Shown piece by piece: positions 9,757 through 22,658 of a DNA stretch of 64,000 nt. The stretch is from a virus (taxonomy: Duplodnaviria > Caudoviricetes): IMG/VR virus record IMGVR_UViG_3300031760_000034, positions 1 through 64,000 of that record. The stretch is one strand, 5' to 3'. The number at the start of each line of letters is the position of its first letter. Within the stretch, counting starts at the first letter, position 1. The notes under the pieces are model-generated. The model saw only the letters and a program-made list of their open reading frames with translations. It was not told the DNA's origin and did not search any database. A program made the translations under genes and the position numbers.

Positions 9757-9897
9757 GGAGCATGGTCAATGTAGGAAAATTTAAGGTGAGGTTATAAGTG
9801 ATTTGAGGCGTCGTATACCCTTGAGTGGACCAGCTATCCATGAGAGGTTAGAAAACGCGTCAGAAAGCCTGTAAATAGCCTTAAATCGAACGTTTCG

Positions 9898-10183
9898 GCT
9901 GATCCCCGATATGTTCAGCAAAGAAATCTTAGCGGTCTGAGGTAAGTTGTTCGGACGAGGGTTCGAATCCCTCCGGCTCCACCCCAATCTCTTGATGACA
10001 ACACGGAAAGACGTGTATATCCCTCTCCGGAGGGAAACTGGGGTCGATAGGATTTAGACGGGCAATGGAAGTAAAGGCATTAACGCTTTGATATAACAAT
10101 AACTGGCAATTATAATATTGCAGACTACACGGGCCTCAAGGAGGCAGCGTGAAGTCGGTGGGACAGACTACCAAAGTGTCTGT
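9898..10183 (+). ncRNA. ssrA: Circularly permuted (two-piece) tmRNA
   Basis: The 3' acceptor part (GGAC-GAGGG-TTCGAAT-CCCTC-CGGCTCC-A, 9953-9981) lies upstream of the 5' part (GGGGTCG...TTAGACGGG from 10040). The two pair with a G3-U70 wobble. Tag ORF 10105-10152 = GNYNIADYTGLKEAA*. Outer boundaries are approximate. Confidence 0.85.
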
Positions 10184-10187
10184 TTTA

Positions 10188-10236
10188 GAGTGAGAATCGA
10201 GAAGGGATAAGGGGTTCGAATCCCCATCTCACTCCA
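10188..10236 (+). other. tRNA-like mini-helix (acceptor + T arm only)
   Basis: GAGTGAGA/TCTCACTC stem with GGGG-TTCGAAT-CCCC T arm; no D or anticodon arm. Confidence 0.6.
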
Positions 10237-10296
10237 ATAGTGGTAGAGGCTTACTGGGGCTCGCCTGACACCACGAGAAAAACAAACGCCCCATAT

Positions 10297-10370
10297 GGAC
10301 TTATAGCTCAGTTGGTTAGAGCAGCAGACTCATAATCTGAAGGTCCCAGGTTCAAGCCCTGGTTGGTCCA
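10297..10370 (+). tRNA. tRNA with CAT anticodon (Ile2 or Met)
   Basis: Full cloverleaf: GGACTTA/TTGGTCC, D arm GCTC/GAGC, loop CT-CAT-AA (10331-10333), T arm CCAGG-TTCAAGC-CCTGG. Confidence 0.9.
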
Positions 10371-10385
10371 CAAATGTCCTTCAAT

Positions 10386-10456
10386 TGGATCATGGTGTAA
10401 TGGTAACACTACAGGTTTTGGTTCTGTCATTCGAGGTTCGAATCCTCGTGGTCCAA
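10386..10456 (+). tRNA. tRNA-Gln(TTG)
   Basis: TGGATCA/TGGTCCA acceptor (U1-A72 type), ACAGG-TT-TTG-GT-TCTGT anticodon arm, CGAGG-TTCGAAT-CCTCG T arm. Confidence 0.92.
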
Positions 10457-10460
10457 CAAT

Positions 10461-11417: not shown

Positions 11418-11561
11418 GGCTGTCCCACCCATCCCAGGTATTTATACGCTGCATATGGGTACATAAAAGAGGTGGTCTTTGATGACAACAGCCCACTAAG
11501 CGTTTTCGGTTTACGCCAACAGGAGTGACACCTTAATAAAACCGACTAAATTGTGTTTGAT

Positions 11562-12116
11562 ATGAAAGCTAATACTCCACGCATAACTGAAGAGGAGATA
11601 GCTCTTATCAAAAGTGCTCAAGCAGGTAATATATCTGCTTATAATAAACTTTACCATCTATATAGTGGATTTACTACAAATCTATTGTATCAGTTCATCA
11701 AAGATTATGATGAGGCTAGAGATATAAATAATCTAGTATGGCTAAAAGTTTATAATAAACTCTCGAAGTTCACAGACTATTCGTCATTCGGCGGATGGCT
11801 GAGAATATTAACTAATCGCACAGCTATTGATTATCTACGTAAGCTAAAACCTTCAATTTATATTCCTGATGACTTGAGTTGTAATCAAGATCAGAATATG
11901 ACTAGTGAGGAATCACAGACTGATTTAACTTCTTATAATCAAGTATTGGAGGTTATTAGACAATTCCCAGAAGACATTCGTAGGATCTTTGAATTGCATT
12001 ATATAGAGCATCTTAGCGTAAGTGAGATTAGTGAAGTTACCAAGATTCCTACCGGTACGATTAAATCGCATCTTAGTAGGAAGCGTAAATTAATTAAAAA
12101 ACTCTTAAAATTATGA
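11562..12116 (+). CDS. ECF-type sigma-70 factor
   Basis: Region 2 (DEARDINNLVWLKVY, FGGWLRILTNRTAIDYLRK) and region 4 HTH (LSVSEISEVTKIPTGTIKSHLSR). Confidence 0.9.
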   Translation: MKANTPRITEEEIALIKSAQAGNISAYNKLYHLYSGFTTNLLYQFIKDYDEARDINNLVWLKVYNKLSKFTDYSSFGGWLRILTNRTAIDYLRKLKPSIYIPDDLSCNQDQNMTSEESQTDLTSYNQVLEVIRQFPEDIRRIFELHYIEHLSVSEISEVTKIPTGTIKSHLSRKRKLIKKLLKL

Positions 12117-12595: not shown

Positions 12596-13987
12596 ATGGC
12601 AAAAGATAAGAAAAAGAATCCTACGGTTGAAGCTCCTGTAGTGGAGAAGCCGGAGGAAAAAGCTCCTGAGACGAAAGTTGAGGAGACTAAGGTTATTAAC
12701 GTAGCCACAAATAAGAAGGGCCTGTCGCAGAGCGATAAAGTTACTTACCTGAAAGAGCTCCGTCATCGTAGCGATGAGCTCAAGCAGGAAGATAATCCTC
12801 CTATGGAGATGATTAAGGGTTATGATATGATTCGTGACGCTGTCATCATAGACATTGCTGTAGGAGAGATTGCGTGCGGTGAGAGTGCAACTGGTCATAT
12901 CCTGATTGCTAATGAGAATAACTATAAAGCTTTGCAGCTTGCAGCTATAACTCGTGGCGTCAAGATTCCCGAGTTTAAGGCTCTTCCTCGTCCTACAAAG
13001 TCTCAGCTTGAGGCTGTAGGTATCGCTGAAATTGGCGAGATTCGTGCACTGCCTATGAAGGACATTAAGCCTTCTAAGGAAGCTGTCGAGAAGAAGAAGG
13101 AAGAGAACAAGCTCAATGCCGAGGCAGAATCTGGTAAGAAAGAGTATCTGAACGATCACACTAAAATTGAGACTGACGATCAGCTGAAGGAGGCCCTTGG
13201 GTTTCAACTCGCTAACAATAAAATCGCTAGTCCGCTTGATCGTATTATCACAGCAGCTCAGTTCTACCGTGCCTATCGTGAGGCTCTCGCCGAAAAGTCA
13301 GACAATCCGCAGGTTGAACTTGCTAAGATCCATGAGCTCACTCTCTCTGATCTCCTTCAGGAGATTAGCACTATGGTGCCCCCCAGCTTCACCGCTGAAG
13401 GATTCGGCCGCCTATTATGTAAGCGCATTGCCGATACTAAGAGCGTGGTACCAGCCTTTGAGATGCTCAAGCGTTGTGGCAAGAAGCGTAACGACAAGGA
13501 GTTCAAGTTCTCTGATGAGGAGATTGCAGCTCTGGTTCGCGTTCTCGTGGTTTGGAAGGCTTCTGCTGAAATAGCTAATCATGGTGCAACAATCAAGCGT
13601 CTGTCTAAGGATGCTAAGAAGAATGCTGACGCCATAGATAAGGCTAACAACGATATCAAGGCAGAGCAAGAGTTGATGAACTATGTTACCAATCCTTCTT
13701 ATGATCTCGCGGATAATTTCATTGCTGCTTATAACAATAAGGAGAATGAGATGCACAACTCTGCAACTGAGATCTATAAGAGTATTGTTGAGACCTATTA
13801 TAAGGACGTTAACGTTCCTGAGCTCGAATTCGAGACTATGTTGTTGAACGTTCAGCAGCATGTAGGTATCGACCTGAATCTCTTCAATGAGGAGATGCTG
13901 AAACGTAGTGAGTATGACTCTAAGAATCTCATTGAGATTACTTCTGAGACTGACGAAGAACCTGAAGGTGAGTCAAAAAACGCATAA
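12596..13987 (+). CDS. Hypothetical protein, 463 aa
   Basis: Long ORF with biased codon use and the CATTTATCAAAA leader. Confidence 0.9.
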   Translation: MAKDKKKNPTVEAPVVEKPEEKAPETKVEETKVINVATNKKGLSQSDKVTYLKELRHRSDELKQEDNPPMEMIKGYDMIRDAVIIDIAVGEIACGESATGHILIANENNYKALQLAAITRGVKIPEFKALPRPTKSQLEAVGIAEIGEIRALPMKDIKPSKEAVEKKKEENKLNAEAESGKKEYLNDHTKIETDDQLKEALGFQLANNKIASPLDRIITAAQFYRAYREALAEKSDNPQVELAKIHELTLSDLLQEISTMVPPSFTAEGFGRLLCKRIADTKSVVPAFEMLKRCGKKRNDKEFKFSDEEIAALVRVLVVWKASAEIANHGATIKRLSKDAKKNADAIDKANNDIKAEQELMNYVTNPSYDLADNFIAAYNNKENEMHNSATEIYKSIVETYYKDVNVPELEFETMLLNVQQHVGIDLNLFNEEMLKRSEYDSKNLIEITSETDEEPEGESKNA

Positions 13988-14065
13988 CGGCTGCTAAGGA
14001 AACTGTTAGAAACTTAGTACGCCGAGTTTGCGGATATATTTTCGCATAATCTAACAATCAATGTT

Positions 14066-14566
14066 ATGAAGCGTTTTACTACCTTTATGTGCTGTATTGC
14101 ATTAATGATCGCAGGTGCTGGTCTTGCTATCAGTAATCTAAAGTCATTGCCACAAAATACAATTGCAGCGGCTACGCCCTATTACAGACCAACTTTGCCT
14201 GTAGTAGGTAATATATTACCTCCCGCATACCGGTGTGAACTGGGCGAGAAGGACTCTCATGCACGAGCAACTTCCTCCAAAGACTCTGTCAACATTATAG
14301 ACAGTGTACGTTGGGTTACAAAGACAAAATGGAAGACTCGTTATCGTGATGTTGATCGTATCGCAACTCACGATACAGGAACTGACACAACGGCTACCAC
14401 TCCAGATAGTTTGTTGCTAAGTCCTGAGTGTACTGATATGTTGGGTCGTGAGGAGTATCCCAAGGATGGTGTTGAGTCTTCTAAAGGCTCATCTATACAA
14501 TTAACTGTCGACGGTGAAGTTGTATATTCCAAAAACGACAATCACTCCGCGGAGGGATGCCAGTGA
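14066..14566 (+). CDS. Secreted or membrane-anchored hypothetical protein
   Basis: N-terminal basic and hydrophobic signal. Confidence 0.75.
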   Translation: MKRFTTFMCCIALMIAGAGLAISNLKSLPQNTIAAATPYYRPTLPVVGNILPPAYRCELGEKDSHARATSSKDSVNIIDSVRWVTKTKWKTRYRDVDRIATHDTGTDTTATTPDSLLLSPECTDMLGREEYPKDGVESSKGSSIQLTVDGEVVYSKNDNHSAEGCQ

Positions 14567-14569
14567 GGA

Positions 14570-16830
14570 ATCACTGGCTTCCCAGCCTTGTGGCAATCCG
14601 GTCAGCGCATGTAAACAGTCTCATTAGCTGGCGCGAAATAGTACAACTTGATCCGAGAATATGTTAGCCTGCTCAACAGGTGAGAAACCCAAAAGGTAGG
14701 ATGAAATGCTATGATGTTGTACGTACTATACAACTGAAAAGTTCATAGTAAGTGGGGAGAGCGTATGTATCAGACCCCAACACATATATAAACCAGACAG
14801 GTTCTTTATGCCTGATCCAGACTTATGAAGTGTGGGATATATGTAAGGAAGACGCACAGAGTAAACCGAAAAAGAAATGCTACTGCTTGTTCATGCAATT
14901 CTTAAGTAGCTCTAAACTGAACCGTATCGATAAATCTACTATAAGCGATACATAATAGTAGAATCACGTTACACGAGTTGAACATACAGACAAGATGCCA
15001 AACCCTGTATGATGTATCGATTCACTATAGCTGTAGTCCAGTGTCACAGGTCTCCAAAACCTGCATTGAGGGACGAGTCTGAGTATATTAGCCTAGCAGA
15101 AGGCTTGACTGTCTGCGCTGTACCGTAACTACGGTCCTTGAAGAAATCCTTTCAGTTTCGATTACTGAATGACCACCTTTGAGGCTACGGTCCCACTGGG
15201 TCACTAGGGATGGGGTGCTGAGGAAAATATGATGAAGACAACCGATGAGCTTTTGGTCGTTTATTCGGTATATAAAAGAGAAAATGACCGCTAGGTAGAT
15301 GGCGCTACCTATGGCGAAGTAGGGCATAGATGCTTGAAGGCCACGCGAGTGAAGTCCGCGAGTAAGACTATTCTAAAGTTACAAAAGACTATGGTAAGCG
15401 ATAGTTAAGTAGTATAGATTGGAGATGTACCAGAGGAAATGCTGGAGTCGAAGGATGACAACCTGACAGTCAAATCCAAATTCTTTCTTATAGTGAGATG
15501 GGTCGATTCGAAGCCTGTACAGCCAGTACAGAGAGAGATCGCTCACATTTTAATAAGGATAGTATATGCAATAAAATAGCACTGTTATACTATATCAGCG
15601 AGAGTAGTAAACTCGTGTGCGGTATAACTTGACTATGCACGGAAAATATACGAAAGTAGTTGAAATGTAATTAATATGTTTAACAAAAAATTAGTGTCCC
15701 TCTATGAAATCTATTACGTTATGTTCAACGCCTTAGAAAAGTGTCCTTCTGTTGTATTGAAGAAACATGACCATTTTAGACGTATGATAGAGAACTGAGT
15801 GCCAACCGTTCCTGAGAAGCAAATTTAGGACAAGATAGAAGGCCAGAAGCTTAGATCAGCAAGTCTAAGTGGTGCGTCCTGTCTATGAAGTCGATATACA
15901 CGACAAACGGAGAAATCCAGATATAAGGCAGCATACTGTAAAGCGAAACCACTCCCTTGTCTCGGGTTGGGTAAAGCGACCCACATGAACCCTATGTAGT
16001 GTAGGTAGTACTGTGGGAAACCGGCGAAGCAGCGCTTTATGTGGGTGACAAATCTAGGTGTATGAGGTGAAATTCCTCCAGTATTCGCGCACTATAAACA
16101 GAAGACAGCAGCAAAGCTGAATGTACAACAAAAAGCCGTTGGTCCACGATAGAGTTTTGGAGCTCTTAGACCGATTCGATAATAAACAGGTTAGATTTAG
16201 CCTGAGAGGCCATAAGCTGATAAATTAAACGGCCAGATAATATTGATTGTTCTGACTGGCAAAACAAATAGAACTGGGGCAGCTGTGCCTAACTTGGTAT
16301 CGCAAGACCGAGATACAACAGCAACGTAGTTGTCTTTTTATTTGGAAAATACGGAGATATACTACACTTTATTGATTTATATTTCTTGGATCCATGAGCA
16401 CTAGGCCGTGACCGTCGCAAGACGTAGCTACTCTGCCAACGAGCCCAAGTTATATTGTACAAAACTCAATATTGTGTTTCGTGTTTGGTGCTTGATTGCA
16501 CAATGTGGCAATTAGCGCTTTTTGAACCTTTATTATAAATGGGTATATATGTCCTACCGTTGGACTCCCGTTGTATTGATTGAGCTTCACAACAGTTTAC
16601 TCGGAGAGGAATATAAAGATACAACTATATAATGAAGAAAACGCGCTTCCCATAAGCATAGCACAACCAGAAAAGAAACAAGATAGAAACACTATAAAAC
16701 TTCCGATAATGCGGCACCTTTTCAAACAGGGATGCTAGCGTATCAAACTTTTTATGGCAACGTCCGAGCCGAGAGGACATATGTGTAACCTTATGTCGTT
16801 GGTCAATCACTGACGATATCAAAAAGGACA
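14570..16830 (+). ncRNA. Candidate large structured ncRNA region
   Basis: 2.26 kb with no convincing long ORF and dense hairpins, many with GNRA loops; strand assumed from flanking genes. Confidence 0.5.
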
Positions 16831-16835
16831 TAAGA

Positions 16836-17465
16836 ATGGCAGAAATTAATGTAAACAGTGCCGTAGATATGGGCACCGTGGCTCAGCATATGAGTCAAAT
16901 TTCAAAACTTGGCGGCCTTTTGGGCGCTAAGTATTTTATGCTGGAAGGCAAAGACACGTGGACAGACTTTGATAAGAAGCAGCGTGAGCTCCAGCTCAAC
17001 CCCAAATCACCGGAACTTATTCTCAATAAGTCTCCGCGTAAGTATGAGATTCGTGATTTTGATGTAATCGCACAGTCCATTAAGACTAATCCCCTTACTG
17101 GCGTTACGTCTGTCGTATTTAACCCTGGTACCTCAACAGAGGCTGAAGCTTCGATTGTAGCTGGCAATGCTTTCGCTCCTATATCTGACGATGCTCTCGC
17201 AGCAGCGCTCACTCCTGGTGCAGCTAAGCATATCTTCGCTAACGGTCGTTCGCTGTTGAACAAGGTCAACATTGCTAACCAGCAGAATGTTGATATGATC
17301 ACAGCCCTGATCAAGATCTTGCAGGCTCAGAAGGATTCTATCATCTCTACGATGAAGGCCAATGAGAAGAAGGTCAATGACTATGAGGAGAACTTGCTGA
17401 AGAGCAAGAAGGAGCTCGAGAATGCCGATAACGGCTCAGTTGAGGTTATTATAGGTCAGTCTTAA
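16836..17465 (+). CDS. Hypothetical protein with C-terminal coiled coil, 209 aa
   Basis: Long ORF with biased codon use. Confidence 0.85.
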   Translation: MAEINVNSAVDMGTVAQHMSQISKLGGLLGAKYFMLEGKDTWTDFDKKQRELQLNPKSPELILNKSPRKYEIRDFDVIAQSIKTNPLTGVTSVVFNPGTSTEAEASIVAGNAFAPISDDALAAALTPGAAKHIFANGRSLLNKVNIANQQNVDMITALIKILQAQKDSIISTMKANEKKVNDYEENLLKSKKELENADNGSVEVIIGQS

Positions 17466-18082: not shown

Positions 18083-18330
18083 TTAGTGGCTCTGCGGGGT
18101 ACACATTATGGTTATTCTTACATTAACTATCATGTACTAAATATTAGAATGTAGTTCAACGAACTATATTGATGTGAGAATATGTATACAACTTCTGAGG
18201 GAGATTGATTAATATACATATTTTCACATCATCTTTAGGTTTGTGGGGGTTTGTTCCGCCACAGATTACAAGGTAAATGATGCTCGAATTCAACTAATTA
18301 ACATGTTTAACAAATTAAATCAATTTGCCT

Positions 18331-18876
18331 ATGACAAAATCAATTAAGTTGAATGCAGCTAACACTCTTAGTATCAAGAAGAAGATTGACAATGATATTA
18401 CTAAATTTAGTCATATCATCCGTGATGAGAATGTGATGTCAAAGAAGGCTAAGGCAGCAGGTCAGGGTTCTGGTCTCGACCTTAAGTCTCTGTATAATAC
18501 TATTCAGCAGCTTCGTGCTAAACGAATTATGTTGAAGGGTATGATTCAGTATCTCAATATGGGTACTACAACATTCAATTACGAGGATTTTAAGAAAACC
18601 AATTATTTTGCTATTTTCTCTGCCTGTGAGGCTAAGGAGGACATCACTCTGTTGAAGATGATTAAGACTCTGAACCCGCAGCTTAAGGCTCAGAAGGGTA
18701 AGAAGAACATCGGTTCTACTGAGACTTTCTCTAAGGAGAAGATTGCACAGCTGATACATGATCAGCAGCTTGAGGCTAATAAGTTTGATGCTATGTTGGA
18801 GAAGTTTAATACTTCTGCTACTATCGAGATTTCAGAGGAGAATTCTGATGATTTCAAGGAGTATCTTACTACATAA
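18331..18876 (+). CDS. Hypothetical basic protein, ~181 aa
   Basis: ATG 18331, ends in TAA. Confidence 0.85.
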   Translation: MTKSIKLNAANTLSIKKKIDNDITKFSHIIRDENVMSKKAKAAGQGSGLDLKSLYNTIQQLRAKRIMLKGMIQYLNMGTTTFNYEDFKKTNYFAIFSACEAKEDITLLKMIKTLNPQLKAQKGKKNIGSTETFSKEKIAQLIHDQQLEANKFDAMLEKFNTSATIEISEENSDDFKEYLTT

Positions 18877-20792: not shown

Positions 20793-22658
20793 ATGATAAT
20801 TAAGAACCTATGTGTCCATACTTATGACATAGAGGTATTTCCAAACTGCTTCCACTGTTGTTGCAAGAATACTGAGACTAATCAAGTCATTAAATTCGAG
20901 ATAAGCGAGAGAAGGAATCAGCTGGCAGAGCTAGTTGATTTCTTCTTTTATAGTCTTGACAACAAAATGTTTTGTGGGTATAATAACCATCATTATGATG
21001 ATGTTATTATCAACTATATGATTGATTTGTTTTACAAACTCAACCAATTACCATATTGGAAGATATGTAGATCGCTGTATAACCTTTCAACAACTATAGT
21101 AAATTCAGAAGATGGAAACATCGAAAAGTTTAAAAAGTGGAAGTATGCGAAGTACTTCTATTCAATGGATTTACTAACGATGCAATTCAGTCGTAAATTG
21201 CGCGTAGGTCTTAAAACCATGCAATGCACTATGCACTATAGAAACGTGCAAGAATACGATGGTGACTTTAATGCACCTATCCCAGTCAGTAAGATTGACG
21301 ATATGATTGCATATAATGTCAATGATGTTGACTCAACTACAGAACTTCTTAATAGATTAGCAGATCAAGTCGAGCTTAGACTTTTTATTGAGAAAGAGCA
21401 CGGCATAGACTGTTTATCTATGGATTCTGTTAAGATGGCAGAGACTTTTCTACTCGAAAAATACTCCGAGAAGTCAGGTATTCCTAAAAATGTTATAAAG
21501 GAAATGAGATCTCCGATGGATTATATTCCATTGAAAGATATTATACTGCCATTTATAAAATACAAAAACCCAAAGTTACAGAGCATCTTAGAGGAAATGA
21601 AGGAACAGGTAGTTTACTCTAAGGAGCGAAAAGGCTACGAGAAGAAGTTTGTTCTCTCGAATGTGGTATATTCTATAGGAGTTGGAGGTATCCATACTAT
21701 TCATACTCCTAAAATATTCCTCCCAAAAGATGATGAGGTGATTGGGCACGCTGATGTGGCGTCAATGTACCCGTCCTTGCTCATTGAATATCAATGGGGT
21801 CCTCGTCATTTGGGAAAATTATTTTGCGAATTGTTTGCCCAATTGAAAGTCGAAAGACTAGAAGCAAAACATACAGGTCAGAAAGTTAAGAACATGTTCC
21901 TTAAGATTGTGCTTAATTCACCTACAGGCAAAATGCAACAAGAGGTTAGTTGGATGTACGATCCATTTAATGTGTTTAAAATACGCATTAATGGCCAATT
22001 GATACTTCTTTTGCTCGTAGACAGGCTTTTAGCACTTGGATGTGAAATTATTCAGTGCAATACAGATGGAGTCGTCTACAAGGCTAAAAAGGGCCTTAAA
22101 CAGGCTATTTCAGATGCTATTAAGGAGGTGGAAGACCTTACTAGACTGGAATTTGAATCTGACGAGTATGAAGCATTCTATCAGTACGCTATTAATGACT
22201 ACTTTGGTGTCTTAAAAGATGGTGAGATAGAAGAAAAAGGTATGTTTATTACTAAACACAAGTTAGGCAAAGGACTTGCTCCGGTAGTAATACCGAAGGC
22301 TGTAATAAACTACTTCGTGAAAGGAGAACCAATTGAAGAATTTATTAAATCTGATGGAGACATCAGGGACTTCCTTATGAGCCAACAGGTTGATAAGAAG
22401 TTTGAAGTGTGGCACGCGGAAAATCAAGTGCAACGCATTAATAGATTCTACGCATCTACTGATGGAGCATATTTATTTAAATATGACCCAAATAGTGGAC
22501 GTGATAAAGAAAATATGCTAACTAAATCAGGAGTAACAATCTTGAATCAGTTATACGATACTACTGTAGAAGGTCGAAAGATTAACTACAGGTACTATAT
22601 CAGCGAAGCCAAGAAGATTATTTCTGACTTTACTGAACAACAACTAGAACTATTTTAA
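20793..22658 (+). CDS. polB: DNA polymerase family B (crAss type)
   Basis: ExoI DIE, ExoII YNNHHYDD, motif A DVASMYPS, motif B KIVLNSPTG, motif C NTDG. Confidence 0.95.
   Translation: MIIKNLCVHTYDIEVFPNCFHCCCKNTETNQVIKFEISERRNQLAELVDFFFYSLDNKMFCGYNNHHYDDVIINYMIDLFYKLNQLPYWKICRSLYNLSTTIVNSEDGNIEKFKKWKYAKYFYSMDLLTMQFSRKLRVGLKTMQCTMHYRNVQEYDGDFNAPIPVSKIDDMIAYNVNDVDSTTELLNRLADQVELRLFIEKEHGIDCLSMDSVKMAETFLLEKYSEKSGIPKNVIKEMRSPMDYIPLKDIILPFIKYKNPKLQSILEEMKEQVVYSKERKGYEKKFVLSNVVYSIGVGGIHTIHTPKIFLPKDDEVIGHADVASMYPSLLIEYQWGPRHLGKLFCELFAQLKVERLEAKHTGQKVKNMFLKIVLNSPTGKMQQEVSWMYDPFNVFKIRINGQLILLLLVDRLLALGCEIIQCNTDGVVYKAKKGLKQAISDAIKEVEDLTRLEFESDEYEAFYQYAINDYFGVLKDGEIEEKGMFITKHKLGKGLAPVVIPKAVINYFVKGEPIEEFIKSDGDIRDFLMSQQVDKKFEVWHAENQVQRINRFYASTDGAYLFKYDPNSGRDKENMLTKSGVTILNQLYDTTVEGRKINYRYYISEAKKIISDFTEQQLELF

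Follow-up and report, generated by a model that had tools for sequence, protein, structure and literature searches.

A conserved protein-free tract upstream of the replication genes of Suoliviridae crAss-like phages is under selection for base pairing and probably specifies a very large structured RNA

The window analyzed here, a stretch of 64,000 nucleotides (64 kb) that forms part of the 75-kb IMG/VR virus record IMGVR_UViG_3300031760_000034, derives from a delta-group crAss-like phage in the family Suoliviridae, the nearest annotated relatives of which are Buhlduvirus cr272_1 and cr273_1. One section of this window carries, in order, genes for an extracytoplasmic function (ECF)-type sigma factor and for proteins of 128, 463 and 166 amino acids (aa), a long tract without any protein gene, and then genes for proteins of 209, 204 and 183 aa and for DNA polymerase. 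The protein-free tract spans positions 14567-16835 on the + strand (2,269 nt), between the 166-aa gene, which terminates at 14566, and the 209-aa gene, the ATG of which is at 16836. An original prediction had drawn attention to this gap as a candidate giant phage non-coding RNA (ncRNA) and had described it as not AT-rich; the tract is indeed real, its GC content of 0.39-0.45 is similar to that of the adjacent DNA, and the GC and AT skews, which are positive in the + strand genes on either side, run on through it. In the present study, we characterize the whole of this tract as a multi-domain structured RNA locus that is free of open reading frames (ORFs) and shows covariation over its entire length.

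The tract is non-coding. The longest ORF overlapping it encodes 83 aa (translation table 11). The original count of at most one ORF, of 40 aa, interrupting the tract was incorrect, because approximately 30 ORFs of 30-83 aa are present on the two strands; however, no small ORF is conserved across the relatives or tiles the tract, the best-shared one occurs in 28 of 42 representative sequences with lengths of 20-73 aa, and the 40-aa ORF itself (15676-15798) is broken in the family consensus. We regard a cryptic protein-coding region, concealed by recoding, frameshifting or introns, as vanishingly improbable. The phage does decode TAG as an amino acid within late genes, and delta-group crAss-like phages are known to carry introns (PMC7886860), but no single stop reassignment opens the tract; TAG=Q, TGA=W and TAA=Q were each tried as the cause of the gap, and each failed to yield a long frame. 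Stop codons of each of the three kinds are abundant in every frame, with about 50 stops per element in each + strand frame, and the longest stop-free run on both strands has a median of 107 codons versus 86 in shuffled sequence. A period-3 signal is also lacking, the power of column variability at this period being 0.1-4.0 times the median in the tract versus 20-65 in the two flanking genes of the same loci. In public records, minus-strand "hypothetical proteins" have been annotated inside the element in two relatives (locus L011, 4260-4766, PV686213.1 ECCNAKDA_00150; locus L137, 3096-3578, NC_055895.1 KNV53_gp52); these are probably spurious gene calls, since sister genomes lack the ORFs and the ORFs are not conserved.

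Identity with a self-splicing intron was likewise considered and rejected. Group I and group II introns occur in delta and zeta crAss-like phages (PMC7886860) and resemble the tract in being large structured RNAs inside crAss-like genomes. However, the tract contains no intron-encoded protein and occupies a fixed position in all relatives, whereas the introns are sporadic, and no Rfam intron matched it at E<=10, which agrees with the earlier failure to recognize a group I or II core. The flanking ORFs are complete genes rather than exon halves; they are distinct, separately conserved and equipped with their own stop and start, so the tract is not inserted in a gene.

The same slot is ORF-free, unannotated and 2.0-2.34 kb long in exemplars of the Oafivirinae genera Buhlduvirus, Chuhaivirus, Cacepaovirus, Bohxovirus and Burzaovirus and of the Loutivirinae genus Buchavirus. 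Every Oafivirinae and Loutivirinae relative examined has a collinear homologue of 2.0-2.36 kb at this spot, preceded by the sigma factor gene and three further genes and followed by two genes and then DNA polymerase; slot and size agree across 7 ICTV genera. An nhmmer profile of the tract produced one collinear full-length match (profile positions ~34-2184) in each of 60 IMG/VR or phage loci, which were condensed to 42 representatives at 97% identity (2,014-2,359 nt). A covariation-tolerant 3' motif matched at least 119 metagenome stretches; the element is present in all 119 listed, and at least 71 of these contain full-length copies (2,032-2,359 nt, median 2,160), which brings the full-length copies to at least 131 in all. 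Many of the metagenome contigs with the element measure 100-106 kb, the size of a whole phage genome. In a species-representative genome collection, the 3' motif was found only on phage-sized contigs binned with metagenome-assembled genomes of Segatella copri, Bacteroidaceae or Lachnospiraceae, and the element in that collection is thus phage-borne only. Together with a report on Bohxovirus (PMC12697116), this co-binning points to Segatella or Prevotella as hosts of such phages. A covariance model (CM) of the 5' domain, R1, detected exactly one copy per phage, including loci outside its training set, and recovered cr52_1 at E=8e-14.

Across this set, the nucleotide identity of the tract equals or exceeds that of its coding neighbors (for example, 0.79 versus 0.62-0.65 in locus L007), its column entropy is 1.00 versus 1.33 for the flanking genes, and the flanking proteins drop to 17-30% identity. 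Neither CM R1 nor nhmmer gave anything significant in crAss001 (Steigviridae) or cr118_1 (Suoliviridae, Uncouvirinae), and as far as tested the element is restricted to the Oafivirinae and Loutivirinae crAss-like phages. The genome of cr118_1 has, in the identical syntenic slot, a more AT-rich ORF-free tract of 1,920 nt (NC_055872.1, 53706-55625; locus L158, 4707-6626), in which none of 14 signature motifs was found and which showed no detectable similarity to the element by nhmmer or CM R1; this tract may be a homologue diverged past recognition, or an analogue or unrelated RNA in the same slot.

Selection for base pairing is evident along the whole length of the tract, in at least 15-25 local helices. 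The 42 representatives were aligned and filtered to 2,146 columns (alignment A2), for which RNAalifold predicted 246 pairs. In each of five segments, the consensus folding energy lay 6.8-14.8 standard deviations below that of column-shuffled alignments; canonical cells amounted to 90% in register versus 35-46% when the 3' partner was slid by 1-3 columns, and 163 of the predicted pairs had changed on both sides. A structure-blind analysis, in which a G-test with average product correction was applied to all 2.3 million column pairs, recovered the predicted pairs as 23 of the 50 top covarying column pairs (chance expectation 0.005) and placed 44 of the 246 in the 1e-4 tail (0.025 expected). The remaining top pairs are mostly clean Watson-Crick covariation that the fold had missed, as at 15349-15373 (GC 21, CG 8, AU 6, UA 4). 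Fifteen helices between 14616 and 16833 satisfied a strict rule (at least 4 stacked columns, canonical pairs at 85% or more, and p<1e-3 for two pairs or more), versus 0 in a parallel-stack control.

Three domains were additionally scored in alignments of their own, and in none of them did any of 500 shuffles reach the observed value. In the 3' domain (A3, six helices), 89.3% of cells were paired versus 71.6% in shuffled alignments, 24 of 29 pairs had changed on both sides and the covariation score was 0.479 versus 0.182; in the central core (A11), the corresponding values were 88.5% versus 71.8%, 13 of 19, and 0.437 versus 0.150. The 5' domain yielded 97.2% versus 81.2%, 11 of 14, and 0.479 versus 0.187 in an alignment (A10) that was fitted to model R1, by which that structure is somewhat favored. 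All three scores also exceeded every slid-partner control (0.04-0.15). The covariation called for by the proposal of a structured RNA is therefore significant. All the stems that had been picked out by eye, including CATACAG/CTGTATG, were found in the sequence, as was a GCAA hairpin at 16413-16422, and several of them reappear below among the helices supported by compensatory change.

The architecture of the element, described here in the sense of the + strand, is one in which variable helices are interspersed with long invariant unpaired strings, and some lineages have gained or lost peripheral hairpins. Behind the upstream stop codon lies a variable linker (14567-14604) with a short G+C-rich hairpin of changing sequence, corresponding to poorly conserved first columns of A2. 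The 5' domain (14605-14772), which R1 scores at E=1e-29, consists of a covarying stem capping an invariant UCUCAUUAG loop, a helix AUCC/GGAU (14651-14702), a hairpin CCUG/CAGG (14668-14680) and the invariant strings GAGAAUAUG and CAAAAGGUAGGAUGAAAUG. It is followed by a cluster of covarying helices (14935-15063) drawn from the strict and the strand-symmetric helix lists, in which the helices 14935-14962, 14947-15018 and 15047-15063 are arranged around invariant GUUACACGAG; the second of these is the previously noted stem CGATACAT/ATGTATCG, whose covariation support comes from the strand-symmetric list. Another of the noted stems, UUCAGU/ACUGAA (15151-15169), carries a T-loop-like heptaloop, UUCGAUU, which remains fixed in A2 while the stem varies (CAGU/ACUG, GCCG/CGGC, CUG/CAG).

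The most conserved core (15242-15289) is an H-type pseudoknot, as indicated by the strand order S1-5', S2-5', S1-3', S2-3'. Stem S1 (15242-15245/15265-15268) is 98% paired and near-invariant, with 2 covarying pairs and compensatory changes in the most distant members; stem S2 (15255-15262/15282-15289) reaches 94% pairing, with both sides altered at 4 pairs and one G.U retained, and occurs in the variants GGUC/GACC, GUAG/CUAC, GCUC/GAGC, CUUG/CAAG and GUUC/GAAC. Loop 3 of the pseudoknot is A-rich (UAUAUAAAAG...). Immediately downstream, the hairpin UAGGUAG/CUACCUA (15292-15311), also singled out in the original prediction, has changed on both sides in 7 of 7 pairs. Four further covarying hairpins of the strict list follow, at 15353-15369, 15389-15404, 15456-15472 and 15517-15529, the last being the predicted CTGTAC/GTACAG stem.

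Exactly mid-element lies a near-invariant motif, UAAYAUGUUUAACAAAAAUURRUGUCCCUC (15672-15701), which holds the palindrome AACAUGUU and is found with at most 2 mismatches in 33 of the 42 representatives. Approximately 60 nt of the region around this motif (TAATTAAYATGTTTAACAAA...CCTATGA.AAATC) are repeated at 18282-18362, before the 183-aa gene, with the second copy of the motif at 18299; this second copy occurs only in the present phage and close relatives and looks like a recent local duplication. A role of the motif as a genome-wide phage promoter was considered and rejected: most of the sites with 3 mismatches fall within genes, and only close relatives share the second exact copy. The motif is thus not a general promoter.

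The adjoining domain (15701-16095) comprises helices at 15701-15791, 15849-15870, 15931-16042 and 16063-16080 together with the invariant strings GUGCCAACCGUU and GUAUUCGYGCACUAU; the helix at 15849-15870 is the CTTAGA/TCTAAG stem of the prediction and, like CTGTAC/GTACAG, is covariation-supported in the strict list. Conserved cores are separated by less conserved, poorly structured stretches at ~16200-16450 and ~16660-16760. The 3' domain (16488-16778) contains, in A3, hairpins at 16488-16501, 16551-16565 (GUCC-UACCGUU-GGAC), 16570-16625 and 16762-16778. The element ends in a terminal stem-loop (16791-16833) with an outer covarying helix of 7-8 bp (16791-16797/16827-16833) and an inner covarying hairpin, GUCA/UGAC (16802-16814); it encloses ACGAUAUCAAAAAGGA (16813-16828), an A-rich AGGA segment that is invariant across genera.

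The sequence features favor an RNA read from the + strand, the same strand as that of the surrounding early and replication genes. GNRA or UNCG tetraloops closed by Watson-Crick stems of 4 bp or more occur 50 times on the + strand versus 2 times on the - strand (p=6e-13; 27 representatives versus 1), the conserved unpaired columns are A-rich (A 121, U 47, G 31, C 16; 56% A), and individual wobble pairs are conserved (UG 38/44, UG 29, GU 24); the strand call is based on these three features. Conserved A-rich unpaired stretches are characteristic of RNAs with complex tertiary folds. A G.U to A.C ratio of 887:298 was discarded as a strand test because it is biased by RNAalifold.

The same features bear on whether the tract instead acts as DNA, namely as a replication origin, a packaging site or a protein-binding region heading the replication module. 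Its non-coding nature, its position upstream of replication genes and its palindromic invariant strings (AACATGTT, GATATC) would fit such a role. On the other hand, iterons are absent, only three short, imperfect direct-repeat families occur, and the base composition given above is not AT-rich; moreover, compensatory changes in dozens of short hairpins, the strand bias of GNRA/UNCG loops and conserved G.U pairs carry no meaning for duplex DNA. We thus consider a DNA element to be a very remote prospect.

The tract belongs to neither of the two families of giant phage RNA that the prediction had proposed for comparison, GOLLD and ROOL, although these are its closest analogues. Cmscan searches against Rfam 15, one at the gathering threshold and one at E<=10 over positions 14000-17400, returned no match in the tract, whether to GOLLD (RF01998), ROOL (RF03087), introns or any other family. 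GOLLD is the customary point of reference for giant RNAs of bacteria or phages. Like GOLLD, the tract is large, ornate and phage-borne (GOLLD being phage- or prophage-borne), with many conserved helices, pseudoknotting and conserved unpaired nucleotides; unlike GOLLD, which measures ~800 nt and is typically found beside tRNA genes, the element extends over ~2,150 nt, resides in crAss-like phages of Bacteroidota with a different host range, and has its nearest tRNAs and transfer-messenger RNA (tmRNA) 4.1 kb upstream, so that tRNA adjacency is lacking. ROOL shares with the tract an origin in the rumen (the present phage is likewise from rumen or bovine gut), large size, ornate structure and frequent phage contexts, but it is ~580 nt long and associated with another phage group. 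OLE, RNase P RNA and ribosomal RNA domains are similar in being multi-domain RNAs with variable peripheral hairpins in a conserved core, A-rich junctions and T-loop/GNRA modules; however, the tract matches none of them in Rfam and no known protein partners are encoded near it, and OLE is a chromosomal gene of extremophilic Firmicutes and is not known as a phage gene.

No published account of the element was found in the openly accessible literature, including a comparative genomics study of crAss-like phages that mentions short-ORF regions for the zeta group only (PMC7886860), a review of the Crassvirales (PMC10136315) and a structural study of the homo-oligomeric RNA-only assemblies of GOLLD, ROOL and OLE (PMC12286853). 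The element is not described in two catalogues of structured-RNA candidates (PMC8040213 and PMC10690425, with motifs averaging 67 nt), nor is it described in the accessible portions of the Suoliviridae literature or in a report on a Segatella copri crAss-like phage (bioRxiv 10.64898/2026.08.21.746148). These results support an RNA family outside Rfam 15. In its lack of coding potential, compensatory helices, pseudoknot and conserved unpaired nucleotides, the tract resembles a large ornate structured ncRNA.

Taken together, we consider it probable that the tract encodes a very large structured ncRNA on the + strand of this Suoliviridae phage, either as one gene or as modules in a fixed array. 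The conservation, covariation, strand asymmetry, lack of coding signal and lack of Rfam matches all support the earlier proposal of one or two large structured RNAs, possibly of a new class. What has been observed so far is a fixed collinear chain of locally folded domains. We rather doubt, although it is possible, that all ~2.15 kb belong to one RNA molecule folded into a single integrated tertiary structure.

Several lines of evidence weigh against the interpretation of the tract as a gene or module array for a very large RNA. No covariation-supported helix spans more than 150 columns in the sequence-based alignment, so nothing ties the domains into one fold; candidate long-range helices joining domains were sought, but none passed, and isolated long-range covarying pairs were judged to be phylogenetic artefacts. 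A strand-symmetric count of G.U versus A.C (86 versus 73, p=0.34) does not separate the strands. At least 14 runs of RNA libraries prepared from bovine gut or rumen contain sequence from part of the tract, and contigs of 4 runs from 4 studies span the tract and its flanking genes alike, but these contigs give no strand, ends or level; their depth over the tract relative to the flanks is 2-5 times higher in two runs and lower in one, a comparison that cannot rank expression and that speaks neither for nor against a discrete RNA. The contigs are compatible with operon transcription but do not prove it, since DNA carry-over is possible. Searches for sigma-70 promoters, intrinsic terminators and Bacteroidota TTTG...TAnnTTTG promoters gave no signal at or in the tract. 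The neighboring proteins were examined as potential RNA partners and set aside, as Pfam, PHROG, PDB and Foldseek gave no hint of such a function, and the scaffold role discussed below, although the most likely one, is an analogy.

Alternatively, the tract might comprise not one RNA but a number of separate structured RNAs of small or medium size, or fragments produced by processing, whose order happens to be maintained; two units divided near 15672-15701 would be one example. In favor of this arrangement, all covariation-supported helices are local, with spans of at most 130 nt and none linking distant parts; the near-invariant, partly palindromic motif is located exactly mid-element and has a copy in another intergenic region before a gene; and the poorly structured stretches mentioned above part the conserved cores. 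Conversely, the modules keep the same order, number and total length throughout the at least 131 full-length copies, each of which is one collinear profile match, searches inside the tract revealed neither terminators nor a promoter consensus, the downstream copy of the mid-element motif is confined to close relatives, and an alignment built from sequence similarity is weak at revealing long-range pairs. We judge a set of separate RNAs to be unlikely.

A further possibility is that the tract might be a giant cis-acting leader, that is, a structured 5' untranslated region, antitermination or processing element that solely controls the 209-aa and 204-aa genes. The terminal stem-loop is separated by 2 nt from the ATG of the 209-aa gene and encloses the invariant A-rich AGGA segment, and it is for these reasons probably a translation-control element for this gene; in addition, the tract is located inside a co-directional operon without terminators. 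Nevertheless, known cis-regulators need far less than a 2-kb series of conserved helices with a pseudoknot core and extended invariant unpaired strings, and conservation is much higher in the RNA than in the genes under its supposed control. An exclusively cis-acting leader therefore appears to us most unlikely.

We infer that the very large ncRNA is transcribed together with the operon, because no promoter or terminator was detected at the borders of the tract, and that it acts as RNA. By analogy with GOLLD and ROOL, the body of the element would most likely be a trans-acting scaffold, either a ribonucleoprotein or an RNA-only assembly, serving host take-over or replication, whereas its last 45 nt probably gate translation of the 209-aa gene in cis.

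The proteins encoded around the tract are mostly without recognizable relatives: Pfam or PHROG matches were obtained for the sigma factor only, and PDB profile searches returned no match. The ECF-type sigma factor (11553-12116; Sigma70_r2 and r4_2 domains) is the first gene of the conserved block that holds the tract, and it could drive transcription of the tract RNA. The 463-aa syntenic protein (12596-13987) is modeled by AlphaFold2 as an all-helical repeat protein (pLDDT 78), for which neither a sequence profile nor a Foldseek search with the model identified a significant PDB match. The upstream syntenic 166-aa gene (14066-14566, + strand) encodes a protein with a lipoprotein-type signal peptide (consensus MKxLxTILCC in alignment A5) and little conservation outside it, which may function in exclusion or at the surface. 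Downstream, the syntenic 209-aa gene (16836-17465, + strand) starts directly behind the terminal stem-loop and has no Pfam, PHROG or PDB match; the DNA polymerase gene lies at 20793-22658.

Upstream of this block, at 9892-10457, are a circularly permuted tmRNA (Rfam RF04321, 61.5 bits; ARAGORN tag GNYNIADYTGLKEAA), tRNA-Met(CAT) and tRNA-Gln(TTG), which are separated from the tract by four genes. The tmRNA bin is by far the deepest in the RNA-library contigs, and its conserved parts may stem from other organisms. Around the tract, the early + strand genes are read with the standard code. The late minus-strand genes (30044-59640) require TAG to be read as an amino acid, with ORFs of 1,881, 5,285, 549, 773 and 1,383 aa containing 9-54 in-frame TAGs; the 5,285-aa ORF holds 54 (TAG=Q). 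A suppressor tRNA for TAG was not found in the window, the anticodon of the tRNA-Gln being TTG.

Large structured ncRNAs are rare, and the ribosome, RNase P, group I and group II introns, GOLLD, ROOL and OLE have each taught new RNA biology. The element described here is 2.5 to 4 times the length of GOLLD or ROOL, sits in a single genomic slot and exceeds the surrounding proteins in conservation, and yet it is unannotated in public records or mis-annotated there as spurious minus-strand proteins. If the tract does form a single fold, it would surpass in length 16S rRNA as well as every non-ribosomal structured RNA so far known from bacteria or phages, and the non-homologous 1.9-kb tract of the Uncouvirinae phage cr118_1 would then be a second, diverged or analogous member. 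In addition to providing a conserved RNA marker for this phage family, the element indicates that gene-dense phage genomes can spend 2% of their length on one RNA.

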